Part shown: in pieces, positions 3,355 through 28,081 of the stretch
Layout: each line of letters starts with the position of its first letter
How positions within the stretch are numbered: the first letter of the stretch is position 1
IMG/VR virus record: IMGVR_UViG_2660238642_000001
Strand: one strand, 5' to 3'
From: a virus
Lineage: Duplodnaviria > Heunggongvirae > Uroviricota > Caudoviricetes
Length of the DNA: 33,492 bases
Made by a program: the position numbers and the translations under genes
Notes under the pieces: generated by a model
What the model was told of the DNA's origin: nothing
Database searches by the model: none
Seen by the model: only the letters and a program-made list of their open reading frames with translations

Positions 3355-3626
3355 GTATTCGTATTGAAATTGGCGAACGTTATGTCGTTACCAGTGACAG
3401 CTTTCAGTTTATTCTCCACGAGAAAAAGAGAGCGGAAAGCGGTAAAAACGCCGGTCAGGAATGGTTGGCGGTGGTTGGTTATTACCCGAAATTAAGCCAG
3501 CTCGTTTCCGGCCTGATGCATCACGATATTCTGACCGGAAGCGCAAAGTCTTTTGCTGATTTAAACGCGCAGGTTGAGCAACTCAGCAAGCGTTGTTCAG
3601 AGGCTTTGGGCTCATATGGCCGTTAA
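3351..3626 (+). CDS. Hypothetical early protein (P2 orf83 position)
   Basis: 91-aa ORF coupled to its neighbours, overlapping the start of A. Confidence 0.5.
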   Translation: MSIRIEIGERYVVTSDSFQFILHEKKRAESGKNAGQEWLAVVGYYPKLSQLVSGLMHHDILTGSAKSFADLNAQVEQLSKRCSEALGSYGR

Positions 3627-5895
3627 AGCCTCCGGGCGTTTTGTCCCTCCGTCAGCATTTGCCGCAGGCACCGGTAAGACGTTTACCGGTGCTTATGCAT
3701 GGAACGCGCCACGCGAGGCTGTCGGGCGCGAAAGACCCCTTACACGTGACGAGATGCGTCAGGTGCAAGGTGTTTTATCCACGATTAACCGCCTGCCTTA
3801 TTTTTTGCGCTCGCTGTTTACTTCACGCTACGACTACATCCGGCGCACTAAAAGCCCGGTGCACGGGTTTTATTTCCTCACATCCACTTTTCAGCGTCGT
3901 TTATGGCCGCGCATTGAGCGCGTTAATCAGCGCCATGAAATGAACACCGACGCGTCGTTGCTGTTTCTGACAGAGCGTGACCATTATGCGCGTCTGCCGG
4001 GGATGAATGACAAGGAGCTGAAAAAGTTTGCCGCCCGTATTTCATCGCAGCTTTTCATGATGTATGAGGAACTCTGCGATGCATGGGTTGATGCACATGG
4101 CGAAAAAGAATCGCTGTTTACGGATGAGGCGCAGGCGCATCTGTATGGTCATGTTGCTGGCGCTGCACGTGCTTTCAATATTTCCCCGCTCTACTGGAAA
4201 AAATACCGTAAAGGACAGATGACCACGAGGCAGGCATATTCTGCCATTGCCCGTCTGTTTAATGATGAGTGGTGGACTCATCAGCTTAAAGGACAGCGTA
4301 TGCGCTGGCATGAAGCGTTACTGATAGCTGTCGGGGAGGTTAATAAAGACCGCTCACCTTATGCCAGTAAACACGCCATTCGTGATGTGCGTGCACGCCG
4401 CCAGGCAAATCTGGAATTTCTTAAATCGTGTGACCTTGAAAACAGGGAAACCGGCGAGCGCATCGACCTTATCAGTAAGGTGATGGGCAGTATTTCTAAT
4501 CCAGAAATTCGCCGGATGGAGCTGATGAACACCATCGCCGGTATTGAGCGTTACGCCGCCGCAGAGGGTGATGTGGGGATGTTTATCACGCTGACCGCAC
4601 CGTCAAAGTATCACCCGACACGTCAGGTCGGAAAAGGCGAAAGTAAAACCGTTCAGCTTAATCACGGCTGGAACGATGAGGCATTTAATCCAAAGGATGC
4701 GCAGCGTTATCTCTGCCGTATCTGGAGCCTGATGCGCACGGCATTCAAGGATAATGATTTACAGGCCTACGGTTTGCGTGTCGTCGAGCCACACCATGAC
4801 GGAACGCCACACTGGCATATGATGCTTTTTTGTAATCCACGCCAGCGTAACCAGATTATCGAAATCATGCGTCGCTATGCGCTCAAAGAGGATGGCGACG
4901 AAAGAGGTGCCGCGCGAAACCGTTTTCAGGCAAAACATCTTAATCGGGGCGGTGCTGCGGGGTATATCGCGAAATACATCTCAAAAAATATCGACGGCTA
5001 TGCACTGGATGGGCAGCTCGATAACGATACCGGCAGACCGCTGAAAGATACTGCCGCGGCTGTTACCGCATGGGCGTCAACGTGGCGCATTCCGCAATTT
5101 AAAACGGTTGGCCTGCCGACAATGGGGGCTTACCGTGAACTACGCAAATTGCCTCGCGGCGTCAGCATTGCTGATGAGTTTGACGAGCGCGTCGAGGCTG
5201 CACGCGCCGCCGCAGACAGTGGTGATTTTGCGTTGTATATCAGCGCGCAGGGTGGGGCAAATGTCCCGCGCGATTGTCAGACTGTCAGGGTCGCCCGTAG
5301 CCCGTCGGATGACGTTAACGAGTACGAGGAAGAAGTCGAGAGAGTGGTCGGCATTTACGCGCCGCATCTCGGCGCGCGTCATATTCATATCACCAGAACG
5401 ACGGACTGGCGCATTGTACCGAAAGTTCCGGTCGTTGAGCCTTTGACTTTAAAAAGCGGCATCGCCGCGCCTCGGAGTCCTGTCAATAACTGTGGAAAGC
5501 TCACCGGTGGTGATACTTCGTCACCGGCTCCCACGCCTTCTGAACACGCCTCAGCAGTGCTTAATCTGGTTGATGACGGTGTCATCGAATGGAGTGACCC
5601 GGAGGTCGTGAGGGCGCTCAGGGGGGCATTAAAACACGGACTGAGAAGACCAAACCGCCAGCAAAGAAACGGAAGCACGTTAAAACCACATGAAATTGCA
5701 CCATCGGCCAGACTGAGCCGGTCGGAACGATTGCAAATTACCCGTATCCGCGTTGACCTTGCTCAGAACGGTATCAGGCCGCAGCGATGGGAGCTTGAGG
5801 CGCTGGCGCGTGGGGCAACAGTAAATTATGACGGGAAAAAATTCATGTATCCGGTCGCTGACGAATGGCCGGGACTCTCAACATATTATCAATGA
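3616..5895 (+). CDS. A: Rolling-circle replication initiator (endonuclease) A
   Basis: ~760 aa from the ATG at 3616 (MAVKASGRF..., matching the P2 gpA N-terminus as recalled; the track ORF begins earlier at 3574). Contains the HUH motif EPHHDGTPHWHMMLF and paired catalytic tyrosines in GYIAKYISK. Confidence 0.9.
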   Translation: MAVKASGRFVPPSAFAAGTGKTFTGAYAWNAPREAVGRERPLTRDEMRQVQGVLSTINRLPYFLRSLFTSRYDYIRRTKSPVHGFYFLTSTFQRRLWPRIERVNQRHEMNTDASLLFLTERDHYARLPGMNDKELKKFAARISSQLFMMYEELCDAWVDAHGEKESLFTDEAQAHLYGHVAGAARAFNISPLYWKKYRKGQMTTRQAYSAIARLFNDEWWTHQLKGQRMRWHEALLIAVGEVNKDRSPYASKHAIRDVRARRQANLEFLKSCDLENRETGERIDLISKVMGSISNPEIRRMELMNTIAGIERYAAAEGDVGMFITLTAPSKYHPTRQVGKGESKTVQLNHGWNDEAFNPKDAQRYLCRIWSLMRTAFKDNDLQAYGLRVVEPHHDGTPHWHMMLFCNPRQRNQIIEIMRRYALKEDGDERGAARNRFQAKHLNRGGAAGYIAKYISKNIDGYALDGQLDNDTGRPLKDTAAAVTAWASTWRIPQFKTVGLPTMGAYRELRKLPRGVSIADEFDERVEAARAAADSGDFALYISAQGGANVPRDCQTVRVARSPSDDVNEYEEEVERVVGIYAPHLGARHIHITRTTDWRIVPKVPVVEPLTLKSGIAAPRSPVNNCGKLTGGDTSSPAPTPSEHASAVLNLVDDGVIEWSDPEVVRALRGALKHGLRRPNRQQRNGSTLKPHEIAPSARLSRSERLQITRIRVDLAQNGIRPQRWELEALARGATVNYDGKKFMYPVADEWPGLSTYYQ

Positions 5896-6308
5896 TGATT
5901 GACATGAATATACTACTGAGATTAATCAGATCATCGATTGATTCCAAGATTATAGTATGGAATGGGAACCGTAAACCGCTCTGAGAGTTGTATGCATATA
6001 TGCCTGAGGGCAAAGCTTAACGTGGTTATTTTGACCAACGTCAGCTACCTAAGAGTTATGGCTGGTCTTATGCTTCTGCATTCCCACAAGCATGTGATGT
6101 GTGGGAAAATGGAGCAGGGAAATCTAAGTTAAGTTGGATTCTAATGTAATTAAGATGCCTAAGTTTGCTTATCTTTCGCTGTGACGTGGAACTTTGTTAT
6201 GATACTGCATGCATAAACAGTTGTTTTCTGCTGTTTAAATTACCAGTGAGCACTTTTGCTTGCTAAGTATAGAATGTAGTCATTTTAAACATGTTGCAAG
6301 GTAGTATC

Positions 6309-7451
6309 ATGGCTGAAGAAGCAGGGCGCTTAACATTTTTTGATGTAACGAAAGCTGGTTTTTACAATCTTAAGGATGAAGTTCAAAAAAGCACGGATAT
6401 TGTAAATATATTAGACTCCCTGTCCAACTGGGTTTGTTCTCGTTCTTTTGAAGAAACCCTACCATTGGTTGATGACTCTAGACTGCGGAAAAAGGTTTAT
6501 TGTCGAGGTGTGCATAAAGATGAAAAGACAGGCGATTATTTTTTTGTGCTTTGGAAATCAGAACTTGATGGCAATGGTAATCTTCAGGGGGTTGCGCCAG
6601 ATTCACAGGTAAATTCATCATCTAGTGACGTTAAGATGCTTTCGGATGATATGACTGATGGGGTTAAATATATTTGGGGTAAGCCATGTTATTACTGGTA
6701 CATCCCTGAGTTCAATAAATTTGCTGCAATTCGTTTCCCTCACTCAAACTCAGACACTTATCTTTTTAGTCGCTATATTAGAGATTATGCTAATTTCAGA
6801 ATGCCATATCCCGGGCGTAAAATTGCAGAAGTATGCAGACCAAATCCAGGTGGGAAAGACATAAAGTTTAGTGTTGTTACATTTGAAAGTGATGACGGAA
6901 GTTCACGAGTAAGATTTTTATTTGAAGCGCAGCAGTATATGAAAAAAGCTGGGCGTATAAATATAAAGAAGATTCGTGACTCTATAACACATATTGTAAT
7001 AAGAGATACAATTGGAGCTAAAGTTCCAGATAAAAGAGCTTGGTGGGTAAAGGCTTTTGATAAATTTCCTGTATTACGTGATGAAGTACCTAAGACTCAT
7101 AAAGAACGACAGATAGAGTTAATTATTGAAGAAAGACCAACTGAAAAGCAAATTGACGAACTTTTCGATTTTTATGAAGAGGATTATGCTTTCGGCTCTT
7201 CTTGGAACAATATCGGCTTCAAACAGGATGGTAAGAATGGGCAGACTAAGTGGTTAGATGAATATGTTATGCGTGATTATTTGAATGCTACTTATACTGT
7301 AAATGATAACGCACATATCTCGGCTGAGAAATTGGCAGAGTTAATTAATGATAAACGAAAAGAACTCGTAAGTGGTCTCGATGGTTATGAGATTGATAAA
7401 ACTCAAGTTATACCTTCGGGAAATAACAATGAGGTCGCTATAGGAGGATGA
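6309..7451 (+). CDS. Hypothetical soluble protein, first gene of the island-1 two-gene operon (candidate defence protein)
   Basis: ~380-aa ORF in a clearly AT-rich island. The ATG at 6309 is preceded by AAGG; the track start is 6291. No Walker, RT, or nuclease motifs recognised. An Rx4H string (RDSITH) is present but not diagnostic. The stop is 1 nt from the start of the next gene. Confidence 0.6.
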   Translation: MAEEAGRLTFFDVTKAGFYNLKDEVQKSTDIVNILDSLSNWVCSRSFEETLPLVDDSRLRKKVYCRGVHKDEKTGDYFFVLWKSELDGNGNLQGVAPDSQVNSSSSDVKMLSDDMTDGVKYIWGKPCYYWYIPEFNKFAAIRFPHSNSDTYLFSRYIRDYANFRMPYPGRKIAEVCRPNPGGKDIKFSVVTFESDDGSSRVRFLFEAQQYMKKAGRINIKKIRDSITHIVIRDTIGAKVPDKRAWWVKAFDKFPVLRDEVPKTHKERQIELIIEERPTEKQIDELFDFYEEDYAFGSSWNNIGFKQDGKNGQTKWLDEYVMRDYLNATYTVNDNAHISAEKLAELINDKRKELVSGLDGYEIDKTQVIPSGNNNEVAIGG

Positions 7452-7452
7452 T

Positions 7453-7959
7453 GTGATAATAAAGATCCTTATTGGGATTCTCATGGCCTTCGTTCTGCTT
7501 GTTGGCGGTTTTAGCATTTCAGAAAGCGTCAAATATTCATATGTTGTTGATCTTCTTGGTGTTTTGCAAAATACGTCCGCGATGATTTTTGCAATTGCTG
7601 GTATTTGGCTAGCTTATCTCTATCCAAATGCAATCGCTGGTTTGATGAAATCTGAAAAAGTGGATTTTTTAGCAAGCAAAAGTGAAGCGAAGCGCATAGA
7701 AGGTATGATTCTTATTATCATTATGTCCGCTACTGTATTAATTTTTATTATTGCTTTTTACGCATTTAATGCTGTTCTCCGCGGTACGGATTTCTATGCG
7801 AACAATCGTCACCTTATTAAAGGTGTGAGTTGTGTATATATCTTGAGTATATTACTGACTCAACTGTCATGCGTTATTGTTCTTATTTGGAGAAATGTCT
7901 CGTTTATAAATAGGTTGTATACAGTAATAAACGAAAAAGAATTGGAGGAAAAGTTATAG
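7453..7959 (+). CDS. Small 4-TM integral membrane protein, translationally coupled partner
   Basis: GTG start 4 nt after AGGAGG (7443-7448) and 1 nt after the upstream stop. 168 aa with four hydrophobic stretches of ~20 residues (IIKILIGILMAFVLLVGGFSI, AMIFAIAGIWLAYLY, MILIIIMSATVLIFIIAFYAF, VSCVYILSILLTQLSCVIVLIW). Confidence 0.6.
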   Translation: MIIKILIGILMAFVLLVGGFSISESVKYSYVVDLLGVLQNTSAMIFAIAGIWLAYLYPNAIAGLMKSEKVDFLASKSEAKRIEGMILIIIMSATVLIFIIAFYAFNAVLRGTDFYANNRHLIKGVSCVYILSILLTQLSCVIVLIWRNVSFINRLYTVINEKELEEKL

Positions 7960-7991
7960 CGAACGGCATTTAATGCTGTTTTAATGATCTT

Positions 7992-8030
7992 AAGGGGTGT
8001 TTTTAATGCACCCCTTTCATGATTTTTTTT
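7992..8030 (+). terminator. Rho-independent terminator closing the island-1 two-gene operon
   Basis: Perfect 8-bp stem AAGGGGTG / CACCCCTT with a 9-nt loop, followed within 6 nt by a T8 run. Confidence 0.55.
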
Positions 8031-8076
8031 AGTGTTTGTTGTTTTTAATAAGAATTGTGAATTAACAGGAGAGGAT

Positions 8077-8808
8077 GTGATACACATAACAAAGCCAGGA
8101 ATTTTATTTAAGTATCGTAAGTTTGATAAAAACAATCTGAAGCTGTTATTGAATCGTGAGTTATGGTTTGCAAAACCAGATACTCTTAATGATCCTTTTG
8201 AAGCAAATTCTTCATTTTCAAATGTGCTTGATGCTGTTTGGAAACATTATCCACTGCCTCTTGATATGAGAATTAAATATGAGAGATATCTTAAACAGTC
8301 ATTGCAGCAAGTCGGAATTTGTTCCTTTAGTAAAGCGAGGAAAAATCAATTGATGTGGTCACATTATGCCGATGAACATAAAGGTATTTGCATTGGCTTT
8401 AAAGAGGAGTATTTGAAGAAAGCTGGGGTTTCTTTTTTGGAAGCAGATGTGGAATATCAGGATAATTATCCCTTTGATGATATTGTTAAACGTATTCATT
8501 ATTTTGAGGATAATGAATGCCTTAACGGGTTTGATAATATTTGCGGGGATATTTTACTTTCTATTTTAACGACAAAGTACACAAGTTGGAAATATGAAAG
8601 GGAGCGCCGATTGATTGTGGAGAATTTTGGAGCAAGGAAATTTGAACCTTTAGCGGTCAATTCTATAGCTTTTGGGTTAAGAATGAAGGAAAGAGATAAA
8701 AAAACGCTACTGACTCTATTGTCAGGCCCAGAGTGGTCGCATTTGAAATGGTTTCAATCAACGAAATCATCAATTAAATACTCTTTAGATTTCATACGTA
8801 TTAAATAG
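8077..8808 (+). CDS. DUF2971-like protein (unknown function)
   Basis: LWFAKPDTLNDPFE and MWSHYADEHKGICIGF match my recollection of the DUF2971 signature. The track ORF starts at GTG 8032, but a GTG at 8077 preceded by AGGAGAGG and lying downstream of the terminator is the more likely start. Confidence 0.55.
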   Translation: MIHITKPGILFKYRKFDKNNLKLLLNRELWFAKPDTLNDPFEANSSFSNVLDAVWKHYPLPLDMRIKYERYLKQSLQQVGICSFSKARKNQLMWSHYADEHKGICIGFKEEYLKKAGVSFLEADVEYQDNYPFDDIVKRIHYFEDNECLNGFDNICGDILLSILTTKYTSWKYERERRLIVENFGARKFEPLAVNSIAFGLRMKERDKKTLLTLLSGPEWSHLKWFQSTKSSIKYSLDFIRIK

Positions 8809-9211
8809 CTTTCAAATAGTTACGGTGGTTGTCATGTTATCGTCCCTCTTAACTGTCAGATCTGATTGAATACTGGATATGTAACCTATCAGTTGGTGTC
8901 TGAGTTAATACAACTGAAAGTATCAAACTGATGGCTTTTGTTCACAGTCGGCAGCAGATAATGAAGCACGAAAATCTGATGCTTGATGCGTTGGTTGGAG
9001 GGCAATTAGTCCGGGAGAATTACGGGTTGCTTAACGATATCAGTCCATCCAGAATGGCTCCGTCATCACACAGATGATAGAGAACGCCGCTAGCCGTGAA
9101 ACTTGTTTCTAGTGTTAGCGGGGGGGAACAATGAGTGCAGCGATGCGTTAGACTTATTTGTGTATTATGGCTTAATCTCGGATAGAGTTTGTTATCTGGA
9201 GAATAGGTTAT

Positions 9212-9631
9212 ATGGTGACGCTTGATACTGTGTATTGGAAGTTTGGTTATGCATCGGAAGCTGCCCAATTATTGGAGACTGAATTAATAAATGCCCTCAC
9301 TGAGTATGATATGAAGCAAGGGGGGGATATAGCGTCGTTGAAAAAACAGTTTCTAGAAATGGATAAGTACACGCTGGGTAAACTGAATTACGCACTGAAG
9401 TCAAGGATGGTGGGGGATGCTGATACACTGGAGCATGTGTCAGATGCTCTTAAAGCCAGAAACTACTTGGCACATGAGTTTTATCGCAAACATGCTGATG
9501 GTAAATTCACTCCAGAAGGAAGGCAGAGAATGCTTGCTGACTTAAAAAATATACATCAAATAATTTTTGAGGCTTACCGCAAGGTTCTGCAACTAAGTGA
9601 CATTGATATTCCTCCTTTAGAGCATGATTAA
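9212..9631 (+). CDS. Small alpha-helical HEPN-like protein (putative RNase or toxin)
   Basis: 139 aa, charged and helix-prone, with ARNYLAHEFY (R83-x4-H88-x2-Y91) resembling the HEPN Rx4-6H motif. Stand-alone gene at the distal end of the island. Confidence 0.45.
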   Translation: MVTLDTVYWKFGYASEAAQLLETELINALTEYDMKQGGDIASLKKQFLEMDKYTLGKLNYALKSRMVGDADTLEHVSDALKARNYLAHEFYRKHADGKFTPEGRQRMLADLKNIHQIIFEAYRKVLQLSDIDIPPLEHD

Positions 9632-9956: not shown

Positions 9957-10991
9957 TCAGCCGTTGTCAGTGTCCAGTGAGTAGTTTTTAAAGCGGATGA
10001 CCTCCTGACCGAGCCAGCCGTTTATCTCGCGGATCCTGTCCTGTAGCGGGATAAGCTCATTGCGGACAAAGACCTTAGCCACTTTCTCAATATCACCCAG
10101 CGACCCGACGTTCTCCGGCTTGCCGCCCATCAACTGAAAGGGGATGCGGTGCGCGTCCAGCAGGTCAGCGGCGCTGGCTTTTTTGATATTAAAAAAATCG
10201 TCCTTCGTCGCCACTTCACTGAGCGGGATAATTTTAATGCCGTCGGCTTTTCCCTGTGGGGCATAGAGAAACAGGTTTTTAAAGTTGTTGCGGCCTTTCG
10301 ACTTCACCATGTTTTCGCGAAGCATTTCGATATCGTTGCGATCCTGCACGGCATCGGTGACGTACATGATGTATCCGGCATGTGCGCCGTTTTCGTAATA
10401 CTTGCGGCGGAACAGCGTGGCCGACTCATTCAGCCAGGCAGAGTTAAGGCCGCTGAGATATTCCGGCAGGCCGTACAGCTCCTGATTAATATCCGGCTCC
10501 AGCAGATGAAACACGGAGCCGGGCGCGAAAGGTGCCGGCTCGTTGAAGGACGGCACCCACCAGTAAACATCCTCCTCCACGCCACGGCGGGTATATTTTG
10601 CCGGTGAGGTTTCCAGTCTGATGACCTTACCGGTAGTGCTGTAACGCTTTTCCAGAAACGCATTACCGAACACCAGAAAATCCAGCACAAAGCGGCTGAA
10701 ATCCTGCTGGGAAAGCCACGGGTGCGGGATAAACGTTGAAGCCAGAATATTACGTTTGACGTAAATCGGTGAGCTGTGATGCACGGCAGCACGCAGGCTT
10801 TTTGCCAGACCGGTAAAGCTGACCGGGGGTTCATACCATCTGCCGTTACTGATACATTCGACATAATCCAGAATGTCACGGCGGTCGAGTACCGGCACCG
10901 GATCACCAAAGGTGAATGCCTCCATTTTCGGGGCGCTGGCGGTCATTTTTTTTGCCGCAGGTTGCGGTGTTTTCCCTTTTTTCTTGCTCAT
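9957..10991 (-). CDS. Q: Portal (capsid vertex) protein
   Basis: 344 aa, the P2 gpQ length. First gene leftward of cos and followed by the large terminase gene, as in P2. Confidence 0.9.
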   Translation of the reverse strand: MSKKKGKTPQPAAKKMTASAPKMEAFTFGDPVPVLDRRDILDYVECISNGRWYEPPVSFTGLAKSLRAAVHHSSPIYVKRNILASTFIPHPWLSQQDFSRFVLDFLVFGNAFLEKRYSTTGKVIRLETSPAKYTRRGVEEDVYWWVPSFNEPAPFAPGSVFHLLEPDINQELYGLPEYLSGLNSAWLNESATLFRRKYYENGAHAGYIMYVTDAVQDRNDIEMLRENMVKSKGRNNFKNLFLYAPQGKADGIKIIPLSEVATKDDFFNIKKASAADLLDAHRIPFQLMGGKPENVGSLGDIEKVAKVFVRNELIPLQDRIREINGWLGQEVIRFKNYSLDTDNG

Positions 10992-19203: not shown

Positions 19204-19839
19204 ATGAACACTCTCGCAAATATTCAGGAACTCGCGCGCGCACTGCGCAACATGATCCGCACCGGCATTATCGTCGAAACCGACCTTAACGCCGGTCGCT
19301 GCCGTGTGCAGACCGGCGGCATGTGCACCGACTGGCTTCAGTGGCTGACCCATCGCGCAGGACGTTCGCGCACATGGTGGGCACCTTCCGTGGGGGAACA
19401 GGTGCTGATTCTGGCCGTGGGTGGTGAACTTGACACGGCGTTTGTTCTGCCGGGGATTTATTCCGGCGATAACCCCGCGCCGTCTGCGTCGGCTGATGCC
19501 CTGCATATCCGTTTCCCTGACGGGGCGGTGATTGAGTATGAACCCGAAACCAGTGCACTCACGGTAAGCGGAATTAAAACGGCCAGCGTGACGGCTTCTG
19601 ATTCTGTTACTGCCACGGTGCCGGTGGTCATGGTGAAAGCATCAACCCGCATCACCCTGGACACACCGGAGGTGGTCTGCACCAACAGGCTGATTACCGG
19701 CACGCTGAAAGTGCAGAAGGGCGGGACGATGCGCGGCAACATTGAACACACCGGCGGTGAACTCTCATCAAACGGTAAGGTACTGCATACCCATAAACAC
19801 CCCGGCGACAGCGGCGGCACAACCGGGAGTCCTCTATGA
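19204..19839 (+). CDS. V: Baseplate spike protein
   Basis: 211 aa, the P2 gpV length. First gene of the V-W-J-I-H-G operon. Confidence 0.85.
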   Translation: MNTLANIQELARALRNMIRTGIIVETDLNAGRCRVQTGGMCTDWLQWLTHRAGRSRTWWAPSVGEQVLILAVGGELDTAFVLPGIYSGDNPAPSASADALHIRFPDGAVIEYEPETSALTVSGIKTASVTASDSVTATVPVVMVKASTRITLDTPEVVCTNRLITGTLKVQKGGTMRGNIEHTGGELSSNGKVLHTHKHPGDSGGTTGSPL

Positions 19840-20183
19840 CAGCGCGTTATCTCGGAATGAATCGCAGTGATGGCCTGACTGTCACTGACCTTGAGCATAT
19901 CAGCCAGAGTATCGGCGATATCCTGCGCACACCGGTCGGCTCACGGGTGATGCGTCGTGATTACGGCTCGTTGCTGGCGTCAATGATTGACCAGCCGCAG
20001 ACCCCGGCGCTTGAGTTGCAGATTAAGGTCGCCTGTTACATGGCCGTGCTGAAATGGGAACCCCGCGTCACCCTGTCATCCGTCACTACGGCGCGCAGTT
20101 TTGACGGGCGAATGACGGTCACGTTAACCGGCCAGCACAACGACACCGGCCAGCCACTTTCGTTAACCATCCCTGTGAGTTGA
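19836..20183 (+). CDS. W: Baseplate wedge protein (gp25-like)
   Basis: 115 aa, the P2 gpW length, coupled to V. Confidence 0.85.
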   Translation: MTARYLGMNRSDGLTVTDLEHISQSIGDILRTPVGSRVMRRDYGSLLASMIDQPQTPALELQIKVACYMAVLKWEPRVTLSSVTTARSFDGRMTVTLTGQHNDTGQPLSLTIPVS

Positions 20184-20187
20184 AACC

Positions 20188-21096
20188 ATGCCGATTATCG
20201 ACCTGAACCAGCTACCCGCACCGGATGTGGTCGAGGAGCTGGACTTTGAAACCATTCTCGCTGAACGCAAGGCGACACTGATTTCCCTTTACCCGGAAGA
20301 CCAGCAGGAGGCGGTCGCCCGTACCCTGACGCTGGAATCTGAGCCTCTCGTCAAACTGCTGGAGGAAAATGCTTATCGTGAGCTTATCTGGCGTCAGCGT
20401 GTGAATGAGGCTGCACGGGCGGTGATGCTGGCCTGTGCAGCCGGTAATGACCTTGATGTGATTGGTGCCAATTACAACACCACGCGCCTGACTATCACCC
20501 CGGCAGATGATTCGACCATCCCGCCGACACCGGCAGTGATGGAGTCTGACACCGATTATCGTCTGCGTATTCAGCAGGCGTTTGAAGGTTTAAGCGTCGC
20601 CGGGTCGGTGGGAGCCTATCAGTATCATGGTCGCAGTGCCGATGGGCGTGTCGCGGATATCTCTGTCACCAGTCCGTCTCCGGCCTGCGTCACCATCTCT
20701 GTGCTGTCACGTGAAAATAACGGTGTGGCATCCGAAGACCTGCTGGCGGTGGTGCGTAACGCCCTTAATGGCGAGGACGTCAGGCCGGTGGCCGACCGCG
20801 TGACCGTGCAGTCTGCCGCCATTGTTGAATACCAGATAAACGCCACGCTTTACCTTTACCCTGGTCCCGAAAGCGAACCCATCCGCGCTGCTGCCGTGAA
20901 AAAACTGGAAGCGTACATCACGGCACAGCACCGGCTGGGGCGCGACATCCGTCTGTCTGCCATTTATGCCGCTTTGCATGTGGAAGGCGTGCAGCGTGTC
21001 GAGCTGGCCGCACCACTGGCCGACATTGTGCTCAACAGTACGCAGGCGTCTTTCTGCACCGAATACAGCGTCGTGACCGGAGGCTCGGATGAGTGA
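20188..21096 (+). CDS. J: Baseplate protein J
   Basis: 302 aa, the P2 gpJ length. Confidence 0.85.
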   Translation: MPIIDLNQLPAPDVVEELDFETILAERKATLISLYPEDQQEAVARTLTLESEPLVKLLEENAYRELIWRQRVNEAARAVMLACAAGNDLDVIGANYNTTRLTITPADDSTIPPTPAVMESDTDYRLRIQQAFEGLSVAGSVGAYQYHGRSADGRVADISVTSPSPACVTISVLSRENNGVASEDLLAVVRNALNGEDVRPVADRVTVQSAAIVEYQINATLYLYPGPESEPIRAAAVKKLEAYITAQHRLGRDIRLSAIYAALHVEGVQRVELAAPLADIVLNSTQASFCTEYSVVTGGSDE

Positions 21097-21619
21097 TTCG
21101 CGACTGCTGCCGACTGGCTCATCACCGCTTGAAGTCGCCGCCGCAAAAGCCTGTGCGGAAATTGAAAAAACGCCGGTCAGTATTCGTGAGCTGTGGAACC
21201 CGGACACCTGCCCGGCAAATCTACTGCCGTGGCTGGCGTGGTCATTTTCGGTTGACCGCTGGGATGAAAAGTGGCCGGAAGCGACAAAACGCGCCGTTAT
21301 CCGCGATGCCTATTTCATTCATTGTCATAAAGGCACTGTCGGCGCAATCCGGCGTGTGGTGGAGCCGCTCGGCTATCTCATTAACGTAAAGGAATGGTGG
21401 GAGACAAACGACCCGCCAGGAACCTTCCGCCTTGATATCGGCGTACTGGAAAGCGGCATCACGGAGGAGATGTATCTGGAAATGGAACGGCTGATTGCCG
21501 ATGCCAAACCCGCAAGTCGCCACCTTATCGGTCTGAACATTATCCAGGACATTCCCGGCTATCTGTATACAGGCGGTGTGGTCTGTGATGGTGATGTTAT
21601 TACTGTTTATCCCGGATAA
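21089..21619 (+). CDS. I: Baseplate protein I
   Basis: 176 aa, the P2 gpI length, overlapping the end of J. Confidence 0.85.
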   Translation: MSDSRLLPTGSSPLEVAAAKACAEIEKTPVSIRELWNPDTCPANLLPWLAWSFSVDRWDEKWPEATKRAVIRDAYFIHCHKGTVGAIRRVVEPLGYLINVKEWWETNDPPGTFRLDIGVLESGITEEMYLEMERLIADAKPASRHLIGLNIIQDIPGYLYTGGVVCDGDVITVYPG

Positions 21620-21629
21620 GTGAGAAACA

Positions 21630-24254
21630 ATGAGCACGAAATTTAAAACCGTTATCACTACTGCCGGAGCCGCAAAGCTGGCAGCCGCCACTGTCCCCGG
21701 CGGGAAAAAAGTAAACCTGTCTGCAATGGCCGTGGGTGACGGTAATGGCAAATTGCCGGTGCCGGATGCCGGTCAGACGAAACTGGTGCATGAGGTCTGG
21801 CGTCACGCTCTGAATAAAGTCAGCGTGGATAACAAGAATAAAAACTATATCGTGGCTGAACTGGTTGTACCGCCAGAAGTGGGCGGCTTCTGGATGCGTG
21901 AACTTGGTCTGTATGATGATGCCGGAACACTGATTGCGGTCGCTAACATGGCAGAAAGCTATAAGCCTGAACTGGCTGAAGGCTCCGGGCGTGCGCAGAC
22001 CTGCCGCATGGTCATTATTGTCAGTAACGTGGCGTCTGTTGAGCTGAGTATTGATGCCAGCACAGTGATGGCGACGCAGGATTACGTCGATGACAAAATC
22101 GCAGAGCATGAGCAGTCCCGCCGCCATCCTGACGCCACGCTGACAGAAAAAGGTTTTACTCAGTTAAGCAGTGCAACAAACAGCACCAGTGAAAAGCTGG
22201 CAGCAACGCCAAAGGCAGTAAAAGCAGCCTATGACAATGCTGAGAAACGTCTGCAGAAAGACCAGAACGGTGGCGATATTCCAGATAAGGGCGCTTTTCT
22301 GGACAATATTGGCGTTACCAGCCTGACGTTTATGAAACACAATGGAATGATTCCAACCACTGACAATCTTGATTCCTATGGCCCAGAAGAAAAATATCTT
22401 GGAACGTGGTCATGTCCGTCACAATCCACTGCAAAACCAGAGTCTGGTTACCCTGAAGATAAAGGCAATGGGGTTCTGGAAGTATTCAATGCTGGTCGCT
22501 TTCACTGCACACAACGCTACACCACCCGAACCGGTAATATTTACATTCGGATGCTTGATGCAGAATGGAACCCTGTCAGTCCTGTATGGAGTGCATGGAG
22601 AGCTATTACAAGCGGGACTCGCCCATTAAGCACGTCAATTGACCTGAATTCTTTAGGTGGTGCGGAACACCTGGGAATATGGCGCAATAGCAGTACATCA
22701 ATAGCCTCATTTGACCGTCATTTCCCGGAGGAAGGGAGTTTTGGACAGGGTATTCTGGAAGTCTTTGAAGGCGGTCTGTATGGGAGGATGCAACGTTATA
22801 CCACCCGTAGTGGGACTATGTACATTCGCGGACTGACAGCCTCATGGGATGCAGAAAATCCACAATGGGAGGACTGGATTGCTGTTGGGTATCAGTCCAC
22901 GGGATGGACTTATTCAGGGGATCTTGATGACCTTTTAAAGCCTGGTATTTATAGCGTCACGAAACAGGCCACAAATGCACCTGTCACCGACTCTAAAGAT
23001 CTTGCTGTTGGCTCAATAGTTGAGGTGAAAAAACGTTGTGATATTGAATCGTATATCCAGACATATACGACTGTTTCAGCAACGGATGCCTATAAAAACC
23101 GGACATTTCAGCGAACCCGCGCCAGCGGTGAAACTGACTGGGGGGAATGGGCGGAAGTATACAACTCAAAATCATTACTCACTAAATTAGGTGTCGGCGG
23201 TGTTACCGACAGGTTATCCAGTCTGGACTGGCAGACCTACGACTTTATACCGGGCAGCATGATAACTGTCAGGCTTTCAGATATGACCAATATTCCCGAT
23301 GGGATGGAATGGGGCGTCATTGATACTAACCTGATAAATATCACTGTTGGCCCCAGTGAAGGCGGAGGTGTCGCCCGTTCAATGCAGGTATGGCGCAGCA
23401 CTTCAAACAAAACCAACTATCGTTTTTTTACAGTCCGCTTATATGGCAATCCTGGGGAGCGTAGCTTCAATATTCGTCGGCTACCAATTATCGACGAAGC
23501 CCAGACATGGGAGGCAAAACAGACATTCAGTGCAGGCCTTTCTGGTGAACTGTCCGGCAATGCGGCTACAGCAACAAAGCTGAAAACGGCAAGGACAATT
23601 AACGGCGTAAAATTTGACGGCTCGGCAAATATTGAAGCGTTTCCGCCTGGTGTTCCGCTGCCGTGGCCATCAGATACACCACCTGCAGGCTATGCAATCA
23701 TGCAGGGGCAGACGTTTGATAAGGCAGCATATCCGAAACTGGCTATAGCCTATCCTTCTGGTGTTATTCCTGATATGCGCGGCTGGACAATCAAGGGCAA
23801 ACCCGCCAGTGGGCGTGCCGTATTGTCACAGGAACAGGACGGGATTAAATCGCATACTCACAGTGCCAGTGCGTCAAATACGGATTTGGGAACGAAAACA
23901 ACCAGTTCGTTTGATTACGGGACGAAGACAGTCAGTACGTTTAACTACGGAACAAAAACCACTAATACCACTGGTAACCATACACATACCATTTACAGAG
24001 GGAATGCCAATACTAATGGTGAAACCGGTAAAACAGGCTTTGACAACCCATCGTTTAATGGCACATCAGGAGCTGCCGGGAATCATGCCCACACGGTAGA
24101 TATTGGTGCACATAATCATACGGTTGGTATTGGTGCACATTCACACACGGTTGCTATTGGCTCACACGGGCACTCTATTACCGTTAATGCTACAGGTAAT
24201 ACAGAAAACACCGTCAAAAACATCGCATTTAACTATATTGTGAGGCTTGCATAA
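21630..24254 (+). CDS. H: Tail fibre protein (P2 H-like N-terminus, divergent repeat-containing distal part)
   Basis: 874 aa. The N-terminal ~190 aa resemble P2 gpH as recalled. The middle carries three ~45-aa internal repeats (QRYTTR[TS]G..YIR...W..W). The C-terminus is Gly/Thr/His-rich with HxH repeats ([32 protein letters not shown]). Confidence 0.85.
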
Positions 24255-24832
24255 TGGCTTTCAGAATGAGTGCAGAAGCACAAACTATCCGCGTTTTCAA
24301 TTTACTTGATGGAACCAATGAGTTTATTGGCGAAAGTGATGCATATATTCCGCCGCATACAGGTCTGCCTGCAAACAGTACAGATATTGCACCACCTGAT
24401 ATTCCTGCTGGTTATGCAGCCGTTTTCAATGCAGATGAAATGAAATGGGAGTTGATGGAAGATCATCGCGGAAAGACTGTCTACGAAACGAAAACGGGAG
24501 CAGCCATTTATATTTCTGAACTTGGTGCATTACCTCCAGACGTGACAGCCATTTCCCCGGATGGGGATTATCAGAAATGGAACGGAAATGCGTGGGTGAA
24601 TGATGAGAATGCAGAGCATGATGCACTTGTCAGAGCGGCGGAGTCTCAGAAGAAAGAGCAGATTGCATATGCCGGTGAAATTATTGGCACTCTGCAGGAT
24701 GCTGTCGATTTAGATATGGCTACCGAGGAAGAAAAGTTAAGCCTGACACACTGGAAAAAATACCGTGTGCTACTGAATCGCGTTCAGCCGGAAAATGCTC
24801 CGGATATAGAATGGCCAGAAATGCCGCAATAA
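24254..24832 (+). CDS. G: Tail fibre assembly chaperone
   Basis: 192 aa immediately after H with a coupled start. Confidence 0.75.
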
Positions 24833-24902
24833 ATCGTATTAGCTCTGGTATGAGATTACTCATCTATGGCACAGAGTAAAACCTAATCAGGCTGTCCGTT
24901 CC

Positions 24903-24918
24903 GTGCCAGGAGCGGACG
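24903..24918. repeat. Copy 1 of a direct repeat GTGCCAGGAGCGGACG (within a ~27-bp imperfect repeat that forms a hairpin)
   Basis: Exact 16-mer seen again at 25827-25842. The surrounding sequence GTCCGTTccgtgccagGAGCGGAC can fold as a stem-loop. Lies just downstream of G. Confidence 0.6.
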
Positions 24919-25229
24919 TTGTAAAGTTTATTTGGAGAATAATGGTTAGAAGAACTATGTAGATCATAGCCCTCTAAAGTCAGTAGTCTTACACCATATA
25001 AATGGTCATTTAGAGATAGTACACCACCTACAAAAAACGAGATAAAGCGTGCAAGCGGCATGAAGATACATAAAATACTCCATTCTGCACTTGATGTTAG
25101 GATGAATACTGACACTCGCTTTGTAAAGATAAAGATGATCTTGAGGATGATTAGTTTATTAATTATCTCCAATGTTTGTTATTTTGTGATGATAAAGATT
25201 CTCTGGATTAATAGGATGGTAATTCAATT

Positions 25230-25257
25230 AAAAGAGACCTTATAGAAGGCCTCTTTT
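25230..25257. terminator. Hairpin with A-run and T-run flanks (candidate bidirectional terminator for the reverse-strand 3-TM gene)
   Basis: AAAAGAGACC ttatagaa GGCCTCTTTT: 9 of 10 complementary positions, about 55 bp beyond the 3' end of the minus-strand ORF. Confidence 0.45.
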
Positions 25258-25312
25258 AAGTTATGAGAGCTGATTTTATATTCAATAGAGTATTCTCATC
25301 GAAGAAATAACC

Positions 25313-25660
25313 TCATAAAATGTAAAGACAGCCAGCAAAAAAAATACAGATAAAGATAAGGGAAATAGCACACTTAACTAAGGACTGAATCCCCCGAGGT
25401 GTTCCCCATGGTTTAGACATTTGGGTTATAACCCAAATAAATAGGGCCATAAAACAGCAAACACCAGCCAATCCGAGCAGAGATATTATGACAACTCCAA
25501 ACAGATTTCCAACATCTAGTTTATCTGTTTTTGCAACTAGGGTTAACAAACCAGCAATAATAGTTGCTATCGATATTCCCGCAATGGTTGTGAGATCAGC
25601 GATAACAGCCAGTTTTTCTTTAGTATTTCCTTGAGTAAAAACCTCTAAAATTGATTTCAT
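25313..25660 (-). CDS. Small 3-TM membrane protein (island-2 cargo, unknown function)
   Basis: 115 aa. ATG preceded on the minus strand by AGGTGG. Three hydrophobic segments of ~22-26 residues. AT-rich, reverse orientation relative to the late operons. Confidence 0.55.
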   Translation of the reverse strand: MKSILEVFTQGNTKEKLAVIADLTTIAGISIATIIAGLLTLVAKTDKLDVGNLFGVVIISLLGLAGVCCFMALFIWVITQMSKPWGTPRGIQSLVKCAISLIFICIFFAGCLYIL

Positions 25661-25826
25661 GGAAAATAACCACCTACTATCGATTATATTCAGGAACTTT
25701 TTATCATAACAATATCAGATAGATAAGGATATTGTAATATTTTGGATGATTTAAACTTACTTTTGTAACTCTAATGTCCACTTTTCGCTCACAGCGGACC
25801 TTTAGCTCAGTTACCTCGTCCGCTTT

Positions 25827-25842
25827 GTGCCAGGAGCGGACG
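25827..25842. repeat. Copy 2 of the direct repeat GTGCCAGGAGCGGACG with overlapping alternative hairpins
   Basis: GCGGAC..GTCCGC and CGTCCGCT..AGCGGACG are mutually exclusive stems in gcggacctttagctcagttacctcgtccgctttgtgccaggagcggacg. Lies between the divergent island-2 genes. Confidence 0.6.
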
Positions 25843-26102
25843 CTAACCTGATTGACGGGAAATCATATTAAGTCGGCATAAAAAATTAGAATATCTTTAG
25901 TGATTATTACTAATGTGTGTGTATAACTTATGCCTAATTTATCGCTCCGGCTGAGGGAATCTTGCCTCCGCTGTCACTTTTAGGTATGTTAACAACTATT
26001 TTTACAGTGGTTCCGAGTTATGCTATCTAACAGATTACTTGAACCGAGTCCGTTTATCAGTATGGCGTTTTATATGCTCAGAGTCCATCCAAGGAGTGAC
26101 TT

Positions 26103-26579
26103 TTGAAATTTGAACAAATCTATAAAAATATTACTGGCCTTAGCTGTCCCATATTCGGGATTCAGTGGAATGCTCCAATAATAGAAACTGACGAAGCGAA
26201 GAAGATCGTCATTTTTCTTGAGGACAAGCGCGTTCTTTTCAATCCTGTCGACATGGAGGGTGCTAGTCATTGCACTTCGAGTGTTATCAACATTAGATCT
26301 GAATTGACTAAAGTCCTACAAGGTTTGCCGAGCGATTCACATTTAGCAAAACAATTAAGGAAAATGAGAAAAGCATGCCAAGAATTCTGTGACAGCGTTG
26401 GCTCCCCTCACTTTATCCAACTTGATCATCCTGTTCAAATATCCATACTTGAGCGAGCCCTTTTTAAACTGCGACAAAAGTGTGGTAACTCTCTGGCAGA
26501 AATAGCGGTTACCTATGGTCTTGATGTTGATGACGGATTGGCCAGTATTATCCCTTTTAATAATCCCAGTAACATATAG
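26103..26579 (+). CDS. Hypothetical protein (island-2 cargo, unknown function)
   Basis: 158-aa ORF (track coordinates), AT-rich, non-canonical start, divergent from the 3-TM gene and followed by a strong terminator. No recognisable motifs. Confidence 0.5.
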   Translation: MKFEQIYKNITGLSCPIFGIQWNAPIIETDEAKKIVIFLEDKRVLFNPVDMEGASHCTSSVINIRSELTKVLQGLPSDSHLAKQLRKMRKACQEFCDSVGSPHFIQLDHPVQISILERALFKLRQKCGNSLAEIAVTYGLDVDDGLASIIPFNNPSNI

Positions 26580-26766
26580 CAATGACTATGAATTTGCTTG
26601 CTGGATTAATTATCATGCAACCGACAGTTTTGGGTCGGAAGCGGTTAGCAAATTAGTCATTAGTGAGTCGTTATGTCCGTTCATCGCTCAAAGCAGACTG
26701 TCAGATTTAATAGCGTTTTGATTATGTAACTTGTCAGTTGGAAGCTGAGTGAGAACAAATCAAGGC

Positions 26767-26795
26767 AGGCGGGCTGATTGCCCGCCTTTTCTTTA
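26767..26795 (+). terminator. Rho-independent terminator separating island 2 from the FI late operon
   Basis: Perfect 8-bp stem AGGCGGGC / GCCCGCCT with loop TGATT, followed by TTTCTTTATTT. Confidence 0.65.
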
Positions 26796-26890
26796 TTTGT
26801 TGTTTCATCCACTGGCCAGCCAGGTCAAATAGCGTCTCATGCTCTGCACAACAGAAAATAGTTGCACCCATTAACCACGGAGTTAAACGG

Positions 26891-28081
26891 ATGAGTGACT
26901 ATCATCACGGCGTGCAGGTGCTGGAGATTAACGACGGCACCCGCGTCATTTCCACCGTATCCACGGCCATTGTCGGCATGGTCTGCACGGCCAGCGATGC
27001 GGATGCGGAAACCTTCCCCCTCAATAAACCGGTGCTGATAACCAATGTGCAGAGCGCAATTGCAAAGGCCGGTAAAAAAGGCACGCTGGCGGCATCGTTG
27101 CAGGCCATCGCCGACCAGTCAAAACCGGTCACCGTTGTCGTGCGTGTGGAAGACGGCACCGGCGACGACGAAGAAACGAAACTTGCGCAGACCATTTCCA
27201 ATATCATCGGCACCACCGACGAAAACGGTCAGTACACCGGACTGAAAGCCCTGCTGGCGGCGGAGTCGGTAACCGGTGTTAAACCGCGTATTCTTGGTGT
27301 GCCGGGACTGGACACCAAAGAGGTTGCCGTCGCACTGGCATCAGTCTGTCAGAAGCTGCGCGCTTTCGGGTATATCAGCGCATGGGGCTGTAAGACCATT
27401 TCCGAGGTGAAAGCCTACCGCCAGAATTTCAGCCAGCGTGAGCTGATGGTCATCTGGCCGGATTTCCTCGCATGGGATACGGTCGCCAGTACCACCGCCA
27501 CCGCGTATGCCACCGCTCGTGCACTGGGCCTGCGTGCTAAAATCGACCAGGAGCAGGGCTGGCATAAAACGCTGTCCAACGTCGGGGTAAGCGGTGTTAC
27601 CGGCATCAGCGCCTCTGTATTCTGGGATTTGCAGGAGTCCGGTACCGATGCTGACCTGCTTAACGAGTCAGGCGTCACAACGCTGATTCGCCGTGACGGT
27701 TTCCGCTTCTGGGGTAACCGTACCTGCTCTGATGACCCGCTGTTCCTCTTTGAAAACTACACCCGCACCGCGCAGGTGCTTGCCGACACGATGGCTGAGG
27801 CGCACATGTGGGCGGTGGACAAGCCCATCACCGCAACGCTGATTCGCGACATCGTTGACGGCATCAATGCCAAATTCCGTGAGCTGAAAACAAACGGCTA
27901 TATCGTGGATGCGACCTGCTGGTTCAGCGAAGAATCCAACGATGCGGAAACCCTCAAGGCCGGAAAACTGTATATCGACTACGACTATACACCGGTGCCT
28001 CCTCTTGAAAACCTGACCCTGCGCCAGCGTATTACCGATAAATACCTGGCAAATCTGGTCACCTCGGTTAACAGCAATTAA
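26891..28081 (+). CDS. FI: Contractile tail sheath protein
   Basis: 396 aa, the P2 gpFI length, followed by the tube gene. Confidence 0.9.
   Translation: MSDYHHGVQVLEINDGTRVISTVSTAIVGMVCTASDADAETFPLNKPVLITNVQSAIAKAGKKGTLAASLQAIADQSKPVTVVVRVEDGTGDDEETKLAQTISNIIGTTDENGQYTGLKALLAAESVTGVKPRILGVPGLDTKEVAVALASVCQKLRAFGYISAWGCKTISEVKAYRQNFSQRELMVIWPDFLAWDTVASTTATAYATARALGLRAKIDQEQGWHKTLSNVGVSGVTGISASVFWDLQESGTDADLLNESGVTTLIRRDGFRFWGNRTCSDDPLFLFENYTRTAQVLADTMAEAHMWAVDKPITATLIRDIVDGINAKFRELKTNGYIVDATCWFSEESNDAETLKAGKLYIDYDYTPVPPLENLTLRQRITDKYLANLVTSVNSN

Follow-up and report, generated by a model that had tools for sequence, protein, structure and literature searches.

A probable mosaic of three modules in the tail fibre gene H of a P2-like prophage

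Results

Genes H and G occupy the tail fibre position of a P2-type operon

The window analysed here is the whole 33,492-nucleotide stretch of one virus record (IMG/VR IMGVR_UViG_2660238642_000001, Caudoviricetes). As a whole it is a P2-like prophage, with a minus-strand open reading frame (ORF) of integrase size at position 1 and tail genes collinear with those of P2, up to the window end. We focus on gene H, which codes for the tail fibre, and on gene G, which codes for the tail-fibre assembly chaperone and whose ATG overlaps the H stop codon at 24254. Upstream of H, the ORFs at 19204-21619 show collinearity with V, W, J and I of P2, with 92% DNA identity. The position of H in this V-W-J-I-H-G late operon, with the chaperone gene after it, is that of a P2 gpH-type gene. 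As described below, H probably combines a P2-type N-terminal block, a knob-bearing shaft and a receptor-binding tip of T4 gp37 and lambda Stf type, the last one having been exchanged together with G.

The N-terminal block is of P2 type

H has 874 residues and the canonical P2 gpH (NC_001895) has 669. The difference of 205 residues agrees with the excess of about 200 residues given in the initial annotation, an earlier reading of this DNA without database searches. Also as proposed there, only the N-terminal part of H is P2-like. Residues 1-207 are 84.5% identical to P2 gpH, and no further high-scoring segment pair with this protein was found at E < 0.01; the two proteins are not collinear over their whole length. 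At the DNA level, the 92% identity to P2 collapses after position 22235, in codon 202. The break in similarity placed at 22300 by the initial annotation does exist, but 22300 lies about 65 nucleotides inside the non-P2 part.

The left junction is located inside a Phage_fiber_2 repeat. This repeat is common to P2 H, Mu S (5YVQ/8JU3) and lambda orf401 (355-394), and it matches Mu S in the comparison suggested earlier. Besides this repeat (170-210), a Pfam scan of H identified two domains, Phage_tail_fib (1-151) and Collar (674-721). Residues 1 to about 207 would thus provide P2-type baseplate attachment and a first fibre repeat, keeping the fibre compatible with a P2 baseplate.

Three knob domains precede a conserved shaft segment

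The middle part of H contains three repeat units, named A, B and C, which were tested by segment-wise Smith-Waterman comparison with shuffled sequences and by profiles. Units A and B align over about 88 residues with a score of 169, against a shuffle mean of 25 (z-score 31). Pairwise comparison of unit C with A or B gives no significant score (z < 2). At the profile level, hhalign aligns A and C with a probability of 82.6% (E = 1e-5). A hidden Markov model (HMM) built from A and B units only finds region 459-511 of H (independent E-value 0.012), and an HMM built from the C units of other homologues finds regions 281-326 (0.002) and 374-419 (0.028). The signal common to the three units is a core of about 45-53 residues, which forms the C-terminal half of a domain of about 90 residues. 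A joint alignment of 23 units keeps its register over the full unit and shows invariant L, G, P, E, Q, W and W residues. The three repeats of about 45 residues seen in the initial annotation are therefore real as cores, but they are only halves of larger domains. Plain blastp of H against itself gave no off-diagonal matches. A fourth repeat, considered in region 516-622, was rejected, as it has no pairwise or profile similarity to A-C (hhalign probability < 1%).

Searches with the middle region (205-654) in Pfam, in NCBIfam and, directly with phmmer, in the PDB gave no match; Pfam has no model for the knob domain. The profile of the repeat unit matched the Pa193 gp47 fibre of a Pseudomonas phage (9B45, E = 8.5e-5), 6CL5 (7.6e-4), 6CL6 (1.2e-3) and 6CT8 (1.8e-3). 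The best stretches in the R1/R2 pyocin fibres 6CL5 (140-211) and 6CL6 (134-207), in chain numbering, correspond to Knob2. An AlphaFold2 (AF2) monomer model of residues 230-625 shows three successive beta units with the same strand pattern and with predicted local distance difference test (pLDDT) values of 70-85. The top Foldseek match is 6CL5_A (E = 2.8e-5), and the antiparallel beta-sheet fold of a knob is recovered. Because of these profile matches, together with the structure model and the fold search, we assign the three repeats as tandem pyocin-knob-type domains of about 90 residues. The R1/R2 pyocin fibres (6CL5, 6CL6, 6CU2) have two knobs instead of three, and their sequence identity with H is about 16-27%. 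In the pyocins, what follows the knobs is a shaft and a lectin-like foot (PMC6116203), whereas in H they are followed by a conserved shaft segment and a collar/needle tip.

A homologue search with the middle block yielded 83 cluster representatives. Almost all come from E. coli, and NCBI names many of them "pyocin knob domain-containing protein". Among these homologues the knob units vary (55-60% identity), whereas region 514-637 is nearly invariant. The latter has no sequence match in Pfam or the PDB. A search of the PDB with the whole homologue alignment matched only the tips of other homologues (Mu S, gp37) and nothing on 514-637. None of canonical P2 H, T4 gp37 and lambda Stf contains a knob according to the knob HMM. 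Shigella phage JK23 (168-kb contig) has the three-knob cassette as well, in the distal subunit of its long tail fibre, with 52% identity over 99% of the query.

Residues 208 to 658, approximately, would form a shaft of the type found in Yersinia phage L-413C, made of three tandem knob-type beta domains of about 90 residues and a conserved segment of about 125 residues. The knobs may be structural beads, possibly with a secondary role in sugar binding, as proposed for pyocin Knob2.

The tip is related to those of T4 gp37 and lambda Stf

The C-terminal part of H matches tips of known structure. With phmmer, residues 655-874 match the T4 gp37 tip (2XGF) with an E-value of 3.4e-76. The match to T4 gp37 spans residues 638-874 of H. 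Identity of the tip is 59% with the C-terminus of lambda Stf (H 660-874 compared with orf314 59-314) and 58% with T4 gp37 785-1026. Identity is high in the collar (54/71 to T4 gp37, 59/72 to lambda Stf) and in both strands of the needle. It is low in the apex (10/25 and 7/25 for T4 and lambda, respectively). The last 16 residues, which correspond to the strand returning to the collar, are the same in the three proteins. These sequence data make the tip of H truly homologous to the tip of T4 gp37 and to the C-terminus of lambda Stf.

H contains six HxH motifs (two histidines separated by one residue), at positions 742, 784, 819, 828, 837 and 846, of which two belong to the up-strand and four to the down-strand. 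With 20 histidines in 874 residues, chance alone would give about 0.5. P2 H and L-413C H have none. The resemblance of this segment to the metal-binding tips of T4 gp37 and lambda Stf, suggested in the initial annotation, is borne out by its alignment with the iron-binding needle of T4 gp37. The T4 needle contains seven iron atoms, with each His6 site formed by the three chains, which contribute one HxH motif apiece (PMC6957217, PMC6116203). The T4 tip has seven HxH motifs and that of lambda has eight. With six motifs, H is therefore predicted to have six metal sites, its needle being shorter than that of T4 by one layer. The apex, between the last HxH of the up-strand and the first HxH of the down-strand, has 32 residues in H and 34 in T4.

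Among the T4 residues for which mutagenesis revealed contact with lipopolysaccharide (LPS) and/or OmpC (PMC6957217), 4/11 are identical in H according to an alignment of low confidence, and the OmpC patch K945/I951/Y953 is not conserved. This mismatch bears only on the prediction of the receptor and not on membership of the fold. Altogether, residues 659 to 874, approximately, would form a Stf/gp37-type tip, in which a collar leads to a six-stranded needle with six predicted His6-metal sites, probably occupied by iron. The divergent apex of 32 residues should contact the receptor.

T4 gp37 785-1026 (2XGF), with gp38, has the same collar-needle-tip architecture as H; in T4 the HxH motifs build the iron sites (PMC6957217). 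Lambda Stf (orf-314 part) and Tfa (orf-194) show the same gene order, from tip to chaperone, and the up-strand motif FDYGTKT is duplicated in both lambda Stf and H. Lambda Stf differs by its far larger apex insertion and by an N-terminal part that attaches to a siphovirus tail.

G is a chaperone of lambda Tfa type

G matches Caudo_TAP (PF02413) over residues 72-192 with an E-value of 3.2e-40 and is thus a member of the Caudo_TAP/Tfa chaperones. It is 65% identical to lambda Tfa over 191 residues, that is over its full length, and 28% identical to T4 gp38. Identity with P2 G is about 40% and is limited to residues 95-192. This separates a tip-specific N-domain (residues 1-94, 24254-24535) from a conserved C-domain (95-192, 24536-24829) corresponding to Caudo_TAP. 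According to PMC9608196, which cites North et al. 2019, the variable N-domain of Tfa binds the fibre and the conserved C-domain trimerises.

In the phage collection, the genomes nearest in the tip are also nearest in G (P24A7b, Chuche, phiNP, STYP1, Ro157c2YLVW, JL22 and lambda-like phages); G is 97.4% identical to that of P24A7b and 89% identical to that of STYP1. Most of these genomes with near tips carry the two genes side by side. Since the same phages are ranked by tip and by G similarity, and the genes are mostly adjacent, the view that G is the cognate chaperone of the tip is supported. By analogy with Tfa, the variable half of G would match the type of tip and its conserved half would drive trimerisation from the C-terminus of the fibre.

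In several E. coli genomes with an identical H, G is split after codon 22 by the IS21-family element ISEc12, which leaves the fibre without its chaperone. One example is E. coli CD306 (NZ_CP013831, 5625-8691).

The right junction and the extent of the probable exchange

Residues 1-675 of H are 95.7% identical to gpH of Yersinia phage L-413C (NP_839867). This stretch covers the P2-type N-terminus, the three knobs and the conserved shaft. The DNA identity with L-413C (96.8%) stops at 23602, and mismatches start after about 23588. The right junction is located inside a conserved motif of the fibre-repeat joint. Similarity to the P2 and L-413C backbone resumes at 24809, in codon 186 of G, near the 3' end of the gene. 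Differences from L-413C are therefore confined to the last 216 residues of H, approximately, and to codons 1-185 of G. The L-413C tip is P2-H-like: region 772-913 of L-413C gpH shares 51% identity with P2 H 472-669, HxH motifs are absent, and the accompanying G is of P2 type, with 175 residues. In the window, by contrast, a collar/HxH tip is paired with a G of lambda Tfa type. According to Garcia et al. 2008, as summarised in PMC7460101, L-413C gpH is a four-part mosaic with P2-like ends.

The type of tip that follows the joint was compared in 56 homologue representatives, namely those having the joint motif and at least 60 residues after it. L-413C-type tips are found in 36 of them, collar/HxH tips in 11 and P2-H-type tips in 6. 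The core of the joint, an 11-residue motif, also directly precedes the knob cassette in several homologues: JK23 gp37 (P0039), P0003, P0018, P0010 and P0056, several of which are E. coli proteins. This motif can thus occur on both the one and the other side of the knob block.

The G+C content (GC) is 0.55-0.58 in the upstream tail genes and 0.44-0.48 over 22000-25000, a drop of about 10 points, from about 57% to about 47%. The modules of H, with the gene G, are collected in Table 1.

Table 1. Positions of genes H and G and of the modules of H in the window
Feature	Residues	Coordinates	Strand	Evidence
Gene H, tail fibre	874 residues	21630..24254	+	Single ORF, contains all H modules
N-terminal baseplate-attachment domain (Phage_tail_fib)	1-151	21630..22082	+	PF12571, E 6.8e-58
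Phage_fiber_2 repeat, holds left junction (~22235, codon 202)	170-210	22137..22259	+	PF03406, E 2.8e-21
Knob domain A, conserved core 281-326	240-330	22347..22619	+	A-B z = 31; hhalign A-B 100%; AF2 pLDDT 70-82
Knob domain B, conserved core 374-419	331-423	22620..22898	+	Smith-Waterman, hhalign, HMM, AF2
Knob domain C, diverged, conserved core 459-511	426-513	22905..23168	+	Profiles; AF2 strand pattern
Conserved shaft segment	514-637	23169..23540	+	Nearly invariant among homologues
Fibre-repeat joint, holds right junction (~23590-23602)	638-668	23541..23633	+	End of L-413C identity
Collar domain of gp37/Stf-type tip	669-740	23634..23849	+	Collar PF07484, E 2.6e-10, at 674-721
Needle with six HxH motifs	741-858	23850..24203	+	Aligned to 2XGF, E 3.4e-76
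Divergent apex, within needle (32 residues)	787-818	23988-24083	+	Per-segment identities
C-terminal strand returning to collar	859-874	24204..24251	+	16/16 identical to T4 gp37 and lambda Stf
Gene G, tail-fibre assembly chaperone	192 residues	24254..24832	+	PF02413, E 3.2e-40

The same allele in a phage and in E. coli genomes

The closest relative of the locus is Peduovirus P24A7b (NC_049390), deposited as a complete phage genome. Its H (YP_009877362) is 99.3% identical to H of the window over 874/874 residues, and its G (YP_009877363) is the one at 97.4% mentioned above. The V-W-J-I-H-G context is the same, with 97.6% DNA identity over 19204-24920. The initial annotation named full-length collinearity with a single known P2-like H as what would refute a mosaic. 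Such collinearity is found here, but P24A7b carries the same mosaic allele; this therefore removes the novelty of the allele and leaves its mosaicism in place. A search of a collection of papers found none mentioning P24A7b. Likewise, it gave nothing for "GAGENS", the lambda Stf joint.

Nine complete E. coli genomes, among them that of the O25:H4 strain CU568-3, contain H-G with 100.0% DNA identity. At least 80% of the query is carried by 20/5426 complete genomes. In the CU568-3 annotation, H is a "phage tail protein" (WP_001576667.1) and G a "tail fiber assembly protein".

The record NC_070906/OU784746 is labelled "Peduovirus P2". Its H has 919 residues and three knobs; over residues 1-675, it shares 73% identity with H of the window. 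Because this H is not the 669-residue gpH of the reference P2 (NC_001895), the label is misleading for comparisons.

Neighbouring genes and cargo islands

V, W, J, I and FI, around H and G, are intact, as are the ORFs of H and G themselves. The tail-sheath gene (FI) is found at 26891, 3' of G. A low-GC island (35-40%) at 24864-26800 separates G from FI, at the position of Z/fun in P2. It contains a hydrophobic ORF of 115 residues (25313-25660, minus strand), for which no family was matched, together with a DUF6650 protein (26103-26579, E = 2e-16). PADLOC gave no match for these two. A bidirectional terminator-like hairpin is found at 26767-26787. The cargo of this island is unlike that found between G and FI in P24A7b: similarity between the two ends at 24920 and resumes at 26711.

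The replication gene (3574-5895) and, on the minus strand, the portal gene (9957-10991) flank another low-GC island (34-40%), at about 6000-9600. The ORFs at 6291-7451 and 7453-7959 match components A (E = 1e-40) and B (E = 1e-19) of the PADLOC candidate defence system PDC-M18. The ORF at 8032-8808 matches PDC-S31 (E = 5e-47) and the Pfam family DUF2971. The position of this cargo (6291-8808) corresponds to the P2 old/tin hotspot for anti-phage genes.

Discussion

The data argue for a trimeric tail fibre, encoded by H of a P2-like (Peduovirus) E. coli prophage and made of three blocks of different history, with a chaperone gene exchanged together with the tip. We estimate the probability of this reading at about 0.88. 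Because both junctions sit in conserved fibre-repeat motifs and GC falls over the distal part, the exchange of a module with its cognate chaperone is supported. The initial annotation had proposed a swapped receptor-binding module accompanied by G. The breakpoints and the homologies of tip and G agree with this proposal, but the distal part is not a single module; it consists of two that were inherited separately. One is the L-413C-type knob shaft, widespread among knob-shaft fibres of Peduovirus phages and E. coli prophages, and the other is the Stf/gp37-type tip. Such a pattern is the signature of cassettes being exchanged at conserved linkers via homologous recombination. One cassette, made of the tip and of codons 1-185 of G, was probably exchanged by homologous recombination between the 11-residue fibre-repeat motif and the conserved 3' end of the chaperone gene. 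Since the whole allele is common to P24A7b, the swaps predate this prophage. Exchange of fibre segments among P2, Mu, P1, lambda and T-even phages is said to have been described since the early 1990s, by Haggard-Ljungquist et al. in 1992.

Some points weigh against this reading of the fibre. The alignment of the apex to T4 is uncertain. The AF2 model represents a monomer of a trimeric protein; its mean pLDDT is 60.7 and it is uninformative for region 512-625 (pLDDT < 40). Homologies, breakpoints, motif counts, the knob fold and the joint occurrence of tip and chaperone are shown here, but trimerisation, metal binding, the part touching the receptor and the receptor itself are inferred only. 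Finally, the direction and the order of the recombination events are not readable from extant sequences.

A vertically inherited, ordinary Peduovirus H gene, collinear with known H genes, would make a mosaic unnecessary. Such a view could draw on the 99.3% protein and 97.6% DNA identity to P24A7b over V-W-J-I-H-G, and on the occurrence of H-G at 100.0% in nine E. coli genomes, where the allele is passed on as a unit within a lineage. Yet collinearity with P24A7b shows only that both carry the same allele. The sharp identity breaks at 22235 (P2) and 23602 (L-413C) and the GC drop of about 10 points are at odds with simple descent. Moreover, lambda Stf/Tfa and T4 gp37 come closest to the downstream blocks, and three or more kinds of tip are joined to homologous shafts. 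We therefore hold vertical inheritance alone to be highly improbable. A decaying, defective prophage, in which H and G would be remnants, is brought to mind by the ISEc12 interruption of the same G in some E. coli genomes. This explanation is very unlikely, as H, G, V, W, J, I and FI are intact in the window and the same allele is found in P24A7b, a complete phage genome. As for the HxH stretch, its Gly/Thr/His-rich composition and short tandem repeats could suggest a low-complexity feature with no structural role. This is barely credible given the residue-by-residue alignment to the crystallised T4 gp37 needle (E = 3.4e-76), the four down-strand HxH motifs in register, the identity of the last 16 residues and the six motifs observed where about 0.5 would occur by chance.

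The knobs could also be receptor-binding sites, for instance for O-antigen or LPS sugars, giving the fibre two separated sites as proposed for R-type pyocins. In R1/R2 pyocins, Buth et al. placed putative sites on Knob2 and on the C-terminal domain, about 100 Å apart (PMC6116203), and the knobs are the variable part of the shaft in H homologues while the next segment is nearly invariant. On the other hand, host-range determinants of gp37/Stf-type fibres map to the tip (PMC6957217). In addition, the knob block is 95.7% identical to that of L-413C, which is specific for Y. pestis, while the host here is E. coli; this near-identity despite another host argues that the knobs do not set host specificity alone. 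We consider receptor binding by the knobs rather unlikely.

By analogy, the receptor of H is most likely an outer-membrane porin and/or the LPS core. Ur-lambda, which uses OmpC, is one analogy for this receptor class. The other is T4 (PMC6957217). Because the apex of H differs from those of both T4 and lambda, their receptors are not transferable to H by homology. More speculatively, the shortened six-site needle with its own apex (787-818) might bind a receptor unlike the OmpC/LPS-glucose of T4 or the OmpC of Ur-lambda, and the knobs might add a second contact, with sugars, so that a fibre with two sites would suit particular E. coli lineages, O25:H4 for example. We regard this combined proposal as doubtful.

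The H-G allele is already on public record and all three of its module classes have solved structural representatives. It is an ordinary case of tail-fibre module swapping, and the understanding of tail-fibre evolution is unchanged by it. Its practical use lies in the exact module boundaries of a natural P2-type chimera, namely an adaptor (residues 1 to about 207), a knob shaft (about 208-658) and a tip (about 659-874) with G, the 11-residue joint motif being a natural joint for tip exchange. These boundaries help to annotate genes now labelled only "phage tail protein" and to design host-range swaps in P2-based particles.

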